A DNA stretch of 64,000 nt from a virus (IMGVR_UViG_3300021431_000083), one strand, 5' to 3'. Positions 46,146 through 47,069 are shown, numbered from the stretch's first letter. Numbers and translations are program-made. The notes: generated from the letters alone by a model not told the origin.

Positions 46146-46181
46146 ATAAAAAAGGTTTACTAGCTTAGCTAGTAAACCTTT
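46146..46181 (-). terminator. Intrinsic terminator downstream of the tRNA
   Basis: 13-bp stem aaggtttactagc/gctagtaaacctt plus U-tract on the minus strand. Confidence 0.88.
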
Positions 46182-46215
46182 ATATCTTTACACTGTTTAG
46201 AACAATGATTATATC

Positions 46216-46312
46216 TGGCAAGCGGCGGAGGTGTCGAACCCCAAGGACCCTTGTGGAGGGGGGCCAGCGGTTTTGAAGACCGCTCCTGTTAGCCGCACAG
46301 GTAACGCCGCCT
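46216..46312 (-). tRNA. tRNA with anticodon UCA (reads UGA), long variable arm, 97 nt
   Basis: AGGCGGCG TTA CCTG TGCGGCTAA CAGG A GCGGT CT[TCA]AA ACCGC (23-24 nt arm) GGGG TTCGACA CCTC CGCCGCTT G CCA. Confidence 0.93.
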
Positions 46313-46488: not shown

Positions 46489-46510
46489 CTTTCCTCCTTT
46501 CAATATTTAT

Positions 46511-46539
46511 ATTTTATCATAAAACTTAAATACCGTCAA
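46511..46539 (-). promoter_or_regulatory. sigma70-type promoter of the small ORF/tRNA unit
   Basis: TTGACG-N17-TAAAAT with TG extension. Confidence 0.8.
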
Positions 46540-46568
46540 TTAAAATTTTATACGACCGCATAAAGTTT

Positions 46569-47069
46569 TTAATTGCCTAACAATGACTCTCCATTACGAT
46601 CAAGACCCCATTTATCCGCAATATTAATTACATTTTGAACATCGCTATCTTGTTTAAACATATCTAATTGTTTTCCCATACTGCCAGCCATTCCATCTGT
46701 GAATGTCTGAATAACATCAATGAGACTACGAAGAGAATGAGCTGCTTCTGTATACTCTTCAAACCAAATAACTCCAAGAGAAGCAAGATAATCTAAAGAC
46801 TCTGAATGCTCTGCAATCATTTGATCAATGGTTTCATCTTCAAGAAGTTCTTTCCATGTAATTAATGGAGAGCCATTTTCCAAGAGAGAAGTATTAATTT
46901 GTTCTGCTTTATCTTCATAGAGAATACGTGCGGCACATATATATAATGCACGTTCAAACACATAACTATTTACAAAACCTTCGTCATCTGCCATATCAAT
47001 TGCCGCAGATATAATTTCATACATCTCTTGGGGTGTAAAGACATTGTTTTTTTCTTGCTCAAGATTCAT
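46569..47069 (-). CDS. Conserved acidic hypothetical protein (tail-region)
   Basis: Complete ORF, no TGA, AAGGAG SD. Confidence 0.8.
   Translation of the reverse strand: MNLEQEKNNVFTPQEMYEIISAAIDMADDEGFVNSYVFERALYICAARILYEDKAEQINTSLLENGSPLITWKELLEDETIDQMIAEHSESLDYLASLGVIWFEEYTEAAHSLRSLIDVIQTFTDGMAGSMGKQLDMFKQDSDVQNVINIADKWGLDRNGESLLGN

Follow-up and report, generated by a model that had tools for sequence, protein, structure and literature searches.

The stretch of viral DNA IMGVR_UViG_3300021431_000083 (64,000 nucleotides (nt), hereafter the window) contains a single transfer RNA (tRNA) gene, which lies on the minus strand at 46216..46312 and has the anticodon UCA; it is the sole UGA reader of this phage. 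On balance, this tRNA is probably the phage's own tryptophan (Trp) opal decoder, in which an additional hairpin carrying CCA in its loop would restore recognition by the tryptophanyl-tRNA synthetase (TrpRS). Judged by sequence comparison, it is a divergent and rare member of a class of tRNAs with two anticodon-like arms, distinguished by acceptor and T stems of 8 and 4 base pairs (bp), respectively (8/4 fold). The element itself is of a known kind, a phage opal suppressor for Trp; in the literature found, the two-arm architecture is undescribed, and no account of a CCA-bearing extra arm in a tRNA was encountered.

ARAGORN, run on the whole window, reported exactly one tRNA, with the anticodon tca, and labelled it tRNA-SeC, as the preliminary description of this DNA had expected of automated tools. 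The gene comprises 97 nt including the encoded CCA end, and reading of the minus strand bore out the UCA anticodon, the encoded CCA, G73 and the long arm (24 nt between the anticodon stem and the T stem) of that description; it had also placed the anticodon at 46274-46276 on the forward strand, where the position was right but the strand was not, the forward letters being the complement, TGA, of a minus-strand gene. The 5' strand of the acceptor stem (46305..46312, tRNA positions 1-8) begins with A1 and pairs over 8 bp with the 3' strand (46220..46227, positions 86-93), which ends in the equivalent of U72, the successive pairs being A-U, G.U, G-C, C-G, G-C, G-C, C-G and G-C. A linker of 2 nt leads to the D arm (46285..46301), with the 5-bp stem CCUGU/ACAGG and a 7-nt loop, and the anticodon arm (46267..46283) has a 5-bp stem and the loop CUUCAAA, which presents UCA at 46276-46274. 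The extra (variable) arm (46245..46265) is a 21-nt hairpin, preceded by 1 nt and followed by 2 nt, with U-C-C-A at tRNA positions 56-59 within its loop (CCA at 46256-46254). The T arm (46228..46242) contains the 4-bp stem GGGG/CCUC and the loop UUCGACA, and the gene ends with the discriminator G94 (the G73 equivalent) and the encoded CCA (46216..46219), both read directly from the sequence. The anticodon arm was assigned by ARAGORN and pairing, and the remaining stems by pairing and the minimum free energy (MFE) fold.

The 8-bp acceptor stem and 4-bp T stem proposed earlier agree with the pairing potential and recur in the MFE fold. The U located 5' of the T stem faces C, with which no pair is possible; in one variant this U is replaced by C, still opposite C and thus unpaired. 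Three observations favour an 8/4 over a 7/5 fold: the potential for pairing, the MFE structure and the U or C left unpaired 5' of the T stem. The register of the extra arm is ambiguous, the alternatives being a 7-nt loop CUCCACA closed by C.A and a 10-nt loop with a bulge, which is the choice of the MFE fold. The best Rfam match is tRNA-Sec (Sec, selenocysteine), with 42.0 bits and an E-value of 2e-6, and the gathering score of 47 is not reached. The Trp-type acceptor ends noted in the preliminary description (A1-U72, G3-C70 and G73) are indeed present, together with G5-C68. According to the rules compiled for bacterial TrpRS (PMC9976931), the major determinants are the anticodon, G73 and the 1-72 pair, with G2-C71, G3-C70 and G4-C69 being strong in Bacillus subtilis; the window tRNA departs from this list at G2.U71 and C4-G69.

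Four variants of the window subtype were distinguished. Among the near-identical tRNAs on other contigs, the anticodon stem occurs in three fully compensated versions, a D-stem pair changes from U-A to A-U, also with compensation, in the variant L230, each linker has a U/C change, and the pyrimidine mismatch of the extra stem is swapped. Across the subtype variants, the acceptor stem and the T stem are constant and show no covariation. The compensated changes, along with the activity of a variant differing by 3 nt, described below, show that the tRNA gene is genuine and not a chance similarity. A comparison of the window (46267-46283, minus strand) with L002:2205-2301, L004:9817-9913 and L230:84-175 indicated that all or nearly all five pairs of the anticodon stem are changed from one version to another, while the remainder of the subtype tRNA is almost constant, an unusually fast turnover being limited to the anticodon stem.

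The class was delimited by a census of IMG/VR with a 20-base pattern in which the anticodon arm and T loop are fixed and the extra arm is left free (a looser pattern, CTTCAAA N{24,40} GGTTCGA, was dropped because, among the matches listed, nearly all were chance ones). The census yielded 53 unique long-arm tRNA(UCA) sequences, 37 of which carry UCCA at one fixed register in the loop of the extra hairpin; the other 16 lack UCCA and, with G1, an acceptor stem of 8 bp and a D stem of 6 bp, are ordinary tRNA-Sec. G73 is present in all 37 UCCA members, with A1-U72 in 30, G1.U72 in five and G1-C72 in two, and many of them possess an acceptor and a D arm typical of bacterial tRNA-Trp. In a set of 38 distinct extra arms, the five pair positions adjoining the 7-nt loop are paired in 93% of cases, as compared to 53% in shuffled arms and at most 51% when the register is slid; double changes occur at all five pairs (covariation score 1.06 versus 0.27), and pairs six and seven are at the random level. 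UCCA is invariant in these arms and is followed by A in more than 90% of them, with the loop reading CUCCAAA, the anticodon loop of tRNA-Trp, in 13 members. RNAalifold, unaided, produced a five-helix fold for the class. Comparative analysis thus identifies the extra arm of the class as a covarying copy of the anticodon arm of tRNA-Trp(CCA), with a 5-bp stem and a 7-nt loop N-U-C-C-A-A-N, and, at the level of sequence, the CCA hairpin is shown to be under strong selection. The preliminary description had taken the long arm for one of the type recognised by the seryl-tRNA synthetase (SerRS); the arm belongs instead to this family of tRNA-Trp(CCA) hairpin copies. In several members, e.g., L014, the two hairpins are near copies of each other, and in most members the second hairpin is preceded by 4-6 nt and followed by 3-5 nt.

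A second scan, which specified the T arm alone, gave a concordant picture: UCCA occurs in all 12 non-Sec tRNAs that it found and in none of the Sec tRNAs. Six-frame totals of open reading frames (ORFs) failed to separate the genetic codes, and the cover by long ORFs was used in their place: with TGA read through, it rises at the two-arm loci by 0.15 on average and by up to 0.49, as compared to 0.04 at Sec loci. In a scan of 185,579 species genomes, the pattern used found five class members, all on small contigs (in Coriobacteriia, Oscillospiraceae and Treponema assemblies and in one more), and most matches were true tRNA-Sec with a chance TCCA. The two-arm class thus appears to be essentially a phage class. 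At four of the IMG/VR two-arm loci (L169, L201, L210 and L166), the long-ORF cover rises more with TAG than with TGA read through, by up to 0.23; the cover at these loci is low under every code tried, and another or a double reassignment, or tRNA-rich regions, are possible reasons.

A covariance model of the class, built without the window subtype, matched the window tRNA with 53.1 bits (E-value 8e-13, the best of 26 matches) and aligned its UCCA to the UCCA of the model, although true Sec tRNAs reach 41-49 bits with the same model and the separation is poor. The long D stem, the extra stem of six to seven levels and the short linkers are common to the window tRNA and a subclass that includes L013, L154, L177, L182 and others, and the shift of one pair from the T stem to the acceptor stem is found in the window subtype alone. 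An extra loop closed by C.A (the CUCCACA reading) occurs in five other members as well; position 6 of the extra loop is C in the window tRNA and A in 33 of the 37 members. A related phage, L005, has at the corresponding position ahead of its holin and endolysin genes the standard form of the class, a 7/5 tRNA(UCA) with the loop GUCCAAA, which shares the T arm, A1-U72, G73 and the long arm with the window tRNA and has a different acceptor.

Alignments of the D arm, acceptor and T arm to 481 unique tRNAs placed Lys, Sec, His, Ser and Arg tRNAs at the top with equal scores, and the serine (Ser) scaffold suggested in the preliminary description found no backing in them, as no isotype-specific likeness appeared. 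In the D arm and acceptor, nothing specifically resembles Ser tRNAs, the tRNA-Ser(GCU) of the phage itself included, and an origin from a Ser scaffold is not supported; the likeness to Firmicutes tRNA-Ser(UGA) proposed in that description was neither confirmed nor excluded as a distant origin. The tRNA-Trp(CCA) of the phage (L355:2773-2849) differs in its acceptor and was rejected as a parent.

The meaning of TGA in this phage follows from four lines of comparison. The window, with a G+C content of 31.7%, contains a plus-strand block at approximately 16.5-43.4 kb, encoding gyrase, ligase, DnaB, RecJ, Pol III alpha and NrdD, which is open in the standard code, and two minus-strand blocks that are open only with TGA read through, e.g., in the gene for a 2622-aa protein with 26 TGAs. 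The minus-strand blocks encode the portal, terminase and tube proteins and the SPbeta-type structural families YonB, YonD, YonG, YomU, YomV and YomW, and are thereby identified as the late genes of an SPbeta-like phage. In the endolysin, 12 of the 13 TGAs fall in Trp-dominated columns of an alignment of 120 homologues, none of the TGA sites there is in a Ser-dominated column, and a named homologue, a Collinsella GH25 enzyme, has W at five of the sites. Compared with the relatives, the TGAs of the window are matched by TGA 49 times, by TGG five times and by any other single codon at most twice. The late genes contain 80 TGA and 33 TGG in 9226 codons (1.22%), about 70% of their Trp codons being written TGA, and the early genes contain no TGA and 82 TGG in 7139 codons (1.15%); the stops of 37 genes are TAA in 29 cases and TAG in eight, with no TGA. 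The endolysin columns, the exchange of TGA with TGG, the late versus early codon counts and the lack of TGA stops confirm that TGA means Trp in this phage, as had been proposed.

The remainder of the genome was reconstructed as a composite of near-identical contigs from several samples, walked until the ends met in the tape-measure gene, which gave approximately 140 kb; the proteins of the window recur on contigs of 140-141 kb that are mutual circular permutations. The remaining part contains approximately 15 tRNAs, with an array that comprises Thr, Asp, Met, Leu, Gln, Ile, Glu, Met, Asn, Lys, Trp(CCA), Arg and Ser(GCU). No second UCA tRNA is present in the whole composite genome of approximately 140 kb, and its gene tables contain no Pfam match to a TrpRS or a release factor; the same holds for the relatives G001 and G002 from IMG/VR. 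The survey of the genome and relatives proposed in the preliminary description thus returned no further TCA tRNA, TrpRS or release factor, and no canonical tRNA-Trp(UCA). Likewise, its suggestion that the true tRNA-Trp(UCA) lies outside the window, the tRNA described here inserting Ser, is not supported in a genome of this extent without another UCA tRNA. As there is neither another UCA tRNA nor a phage TrpRS, the window tRNA must serve all Trp-TGA codons and depend on the host for charging. Likewise lacking from the gene tables is any SelB-, SelA- or SelD-like Pfam match; the selenocysteine insertion sequence (SECIS) was not searched for.

Published suppression data bear directly on this tRNA. 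The supplement of Seki et al. (bioRxiv 10.1101/2025.10.30.685624) lists 31 phage tRNA(UCA) together with their activity on stop-codon reporters in E. coli extract. One of them, tRNAUCA-26, is the same tRNA as that of the window apart from three of the 97 nt, located in a linker and in the mismatch of the extra stem; it gave 48431 units on the UGA reporter, as compared to 5403 without tRNA and 69124 for the wild type, and no activity on UAG and UAA. The 3-nt variant is thus shown to be processed, charged and used by E. coli components without any phage factor. By sequence, 13 of the 31 tRNAs have the two-arm form, each of them being active (26.7-58.9 thousand units); only two of the other 18 exceed 25 thousand units (Fisher p 5e-7). 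In the same study, Trp was inserted by all 13 tRNA(UCA) analysed by mass spectrometry, which the legend does not name; since only 15 are active, at least 11 of the 13 two-arm tRNAs must be among those analysed, and Trp insertion by tRNAUCA-26 is likely. Between the two alternatives of the preliminary description, a Trp acceptor and a Ser-inserting suppressor, the former is the better one in view of the conserved Trp sites, the TGA/TGG exchange and the suppression by the 3-nt variant. The supplement also contains tRNACUA-44 from a cattle phage, which has a GUCCAAA extra arm, a Trp-like body and the anticodon CUA and shows strong UAG suppression in E. coli extract; the two-arm design is thus not limited to UGA readers.

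The proposed mechanism may be outlined as follows. The hairpin at the normal position, bearing UCA, would read UGA on the ribosome; the change of C34 to U would weaken the anticodon signal for TrpRS, and the hairpin of the variable arm, as a copy of the anticodon arm in tRNA-Trp(CCA), would restore recognition through its CCA loop in combination with A1-U72 and G73. The host TrpRS would then charge the window tRNA with Trp, and the late structural and lysis genes would become translatable in a standard-code host. We infer that TrpRS reads the CCA loop as a determinant and that the window tRNA itself inserts Trp. The chances are about even that the arm is a decoy anticodon in the strict sense, with TrpRS reading CCA on the variable arm and the ribosome reading UCA, so that the signals for charging and decoding are split. 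In the 8/4 lineage, the same idea would imply that the decoy is rigidly mounted and that TrpRS recognises an anticodon loop from the position of a class-II arm. If true, this would be a mode of tRNA identity undescribed for any synthetase. Phages that reassign UGA in standard-code hosts need a UCA tRNA that is charged by a host enzyme which checks the anticodon, and this need would be served in a simple and general way by a copy of the cognate anticodon arm within the tRNA itself, which would also be a new kind of identity element.

Several points weigh against this mechanism. The linkers of 1 nt and 2 nt suggest that the arm should project in a class-II-like manner, away from the site where TrpRS contacts the anticodon, and in the window loop, with its ambiguous register, CCA is followed by C and not by A. 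A long arm combined with G73 is also a SerRS signature (Mukai et al. 2017, PMC5389517). The role of the extra arm in charging is something that we infer, and Trp insertion by tRNAUCA-26, however likely, is not certain, as the set analysed by mass spectrometry is unlisted. The contrast between the 13 two-arm tRNAs and the other 18 is confounded, the 13 being mutually related and several of the 18 being low-confidence tRNA predictions. Moreover, the class-I tRNA(UCA) 12 and 18 of Seki et al., which have no extra arm, are active in E. coli extract, and opal suppressors are tryptophanylated in E. coli according to work as cited in the text of Borges et al. (bioRxiv 10.1101/2021.08.26.457843); taken together, these two points indicate that TrpRS can accept U34 without a decoy.

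The last observation leads to the strongest of the rival explanations, namely that the tRNA is a working Trp opal suppressor whose CCA hairpin is no TrpRS determinant, charging proceeding via A1-U72 and G73 with a TrpRS that tolerates U34. The arm would then have arisen by tandem duplication of the anticodon arm and have been kept for folding or stability, for processing, for a protein partner or for diverting an anticodon nuclease. The activity of tRNAs 12 and 18 fits this explanation, as do the near-identical hairpins of members such as L014, the RNA-ligase and kinase genes beside the tRNA array, which are expected where anticodon nucleases matter, and the short linkers of the window variant, which are ill-suited to TrpRS reaching the loop. 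It has more difficulty with the invariance of UCCA and of the 7-nt loop length over 38 distinct covarying stems, which implies that the tRNA-Trp loop sequence itself is selected, and with the strong activity of all 13 two-arm tRNAs with foreign E. coli enzymes, which most one-arm tRNAs do not share, so it is considered rather unlikely, while clearly ahead of the remaining alternatives. It is improbable that the arms swap, the tRNA switching between two L-shaped folds, one that places the CCA hairpin at the anticodon position when TrpRS binds and one that places the UCA hairpin there when the ribosome decodes; UGG might then be read as well. The linkers usual in the class (3-5 nt after the second hairpin and 4-6 nt before it) would let either hairpin stack under the D arm, but those of the window tRNA are 1 and 2 nt and its T stem has 4 bp, leaving no variable loop for the swapped form.

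Charging by SerRS through the long arm and G73, with UGA read as Ser, would agree with the long arm, G73 and the 8/4 fold known from phage and bacterial 8/4 tRNA-Ser (Mukai et al. 2017), but it is very improbable for a tRNA that, as the sole UCA reader, has to serve approximately 80 Trp sites in the window alone. TGA occupies sites of conserved Trp and is interchanged with TGG, Ser dominates no TGA column, the late frequency of TGA plus TGG equals the early frequency of TGG, the phage tRNA(UCA) examined by mass spectrometry all gave Trp, and G2.U71 replaces G2-C71. A true selenocysteine tRNA, as labelled by ARAGORN, seems hardly credible, in spite of tRNA-Sec being the best Rfam family and of the 8-bp acceptor and long D stem: the match stays below the Rfam threshold of 47, the fold is 8/4 and not 8/5, the D loop has 7 nt and not 4, approximately 80 in-frame TGAs are found at Trp sites, and no SelB-, SelA- or SelD-like Pfam match occurs in the gene tables. 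A tRNA-Sec identity was accordingly rejected, as neither an 8/5 branch, nor the gathering score of Rfam RF01852, nor UGA at Sec or Cys sites accompanied by Sel machinery was found.

The decoder with a CCA-bearing arm may be compared with several known systems. The code-4 gut and rumen phages of Borges et al. share with the present phage a UGA reader located just upstream of the lysis genes, recoded late genes next to early genes in the standard code, and charging left to the host; among the code-4 phages examined by these authors, a suppressor tRNA was detected in only 35%, and phage synthetases were few. Neither Seki et al. nor Borges et al. mention a long arm, a CCA loop or an 8/4 fold. Mukai et al. 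described 8/4 tRNAs comprising allo-tRNA, phage tRNA-Ser and tRNA-His and the selC* tRNA-Cys(UCA) with A1-U72. The 12-bp acceptor/T branch split as 8/4, the long extra arm and the occurrence in phages are shared with the window tRNA, and selC* additionally shares A1-U72 and the UCA anticodon; however, the tRNAs of Mukai et al. are acceptors of Ser, His, Ala or Cys, where U73 marks Cys, and Trp is unmentioned, whereas in the window tRNA G73 is combined with CCA in the extra loop, and the codons served are those for Trp. Bacterial tRNA-Sec (selC, RF01852) also combines UCA with an 8-bp acceptor, a long D stem, a long extra arm and G73, but it has an 8/5 fold and a 6-bp D stem with a 4-nt loop and needs SelA, SelB and SECIS, and the UCCA loop was found in none of the 16 true Sec tRNAs of the census, which was blind to the arm. 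Canonical tRNA-Trp(CCA), like the class-I tRNA-Trp(UCA) that code-4 bacteria and phages possess, has the same A1-U72, G3-C70, G5-C68 and G73; the anticodon loop of the former is the extra-arm loop of the class (CUCCAAA in many members), and the class-I tRNA-Trp differ in a variable loop of 4-5 nt and a single anticodon hairpin. The operator in the E. coli thrS mRNA contains a hairpin that copies the cognate anticodon arm and is bound by the threonyl-tRNA synthetase outside the context of a tRNA. There, the mimic is in an mRNA and represses translation, whereas here a mimic inside a tRNA would promote charging. From a practical point of view, the two-arm tRNA genes are labelled as tRNA-Sec or missed in annotation, and the two-arm design may aid the design of efficient UGA suppressors, given that 13 of 13 were strongly active in the published screen.

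The tRNA gene is part of a minus-strand cassette, in which a promoter-like site (46539-46511) is followed by an ORF for 62 aa, the tRNA, a strong terminator, a holin-like gene and an endolysin gene. The 62-aa ORF (46503-46315) has a strong ribosome-binding site and one in-frame TGA and ends 2-4 nt ahead of the tRNA 5' end; both L004 and L005 retain this ORF with its TGA, though the L005 tRNA is of a different subtype. The ORF may be a leader whose translation depends on the downstream tRNA. Directly 3' of the tRNA lies an intrinsic terminator-like hairpin of 14 pairs with a T run (46151..46181, minus strand), and directly downstream is the gene for a holin-like protein (46128-45625, minus strand) with two membrane segments and one TGA, followed by the GH25 + ELLD endolysin gene (45680-43968, minus strand), with 13 TGAs at positions that align to Trp. 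This arrangement matches the link between recoding and the timing of lysis proposed by Borges et al. A further promoter-like match (11/12) at 46208-46237 on the minus strand, with its -35 element in the T loop of the tRNA and its -10 element after the CCA end, is probably due to chance, since the terminator is located approximately 30 nt downstream.

The DNA sequencing runs in which the stretch or parts of it occur carry the labels gut, goat, bovine and sheep gut metagenome. In two studies, three RNA runs yielded metatranscriptome contigs that cover 46506-46810 only, with the tRNA outside, and are uninformative on its expression; they span the 3' part of a TGA-free 166-aa ORF (46569-47069) as well as the promoter region of the tRNA cassette. 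The 166-aa protein is acidic and conserved in L005. Neither Pfam nor PHROGs gave a match for this protein, for the holin-like one or for two late proteins of 478 aa and 2622 aa, and a megablast search of 20 kb against GenBank phages gave no match.

Further RNA elements and genes were noted around the tRNA array elsewhere in the genome. A full-length ROOL RNA (L356:7800-8375; Rfam RF03087, 334 bits) lies directly upstream of the array. Beside the ROOL RNA and the array (L356:1626-7400 and L361:11407-17181) are genes for two RNA ligases (PF09414 and PF09511), an AAA_33/Zeta-toxin-like kinase and a metallophosphoesterase, a set typical of tRNA repair. The array also includes a tRNA-like gene (L355:6415-6486, L356:15896-15967 and L221:5393-5465) in which a GCAA tetraloop on a G+C-rich stem replaces the anticodon loop; it scores 31 bits with the Rfam tRNA model and is incapable of decoding.

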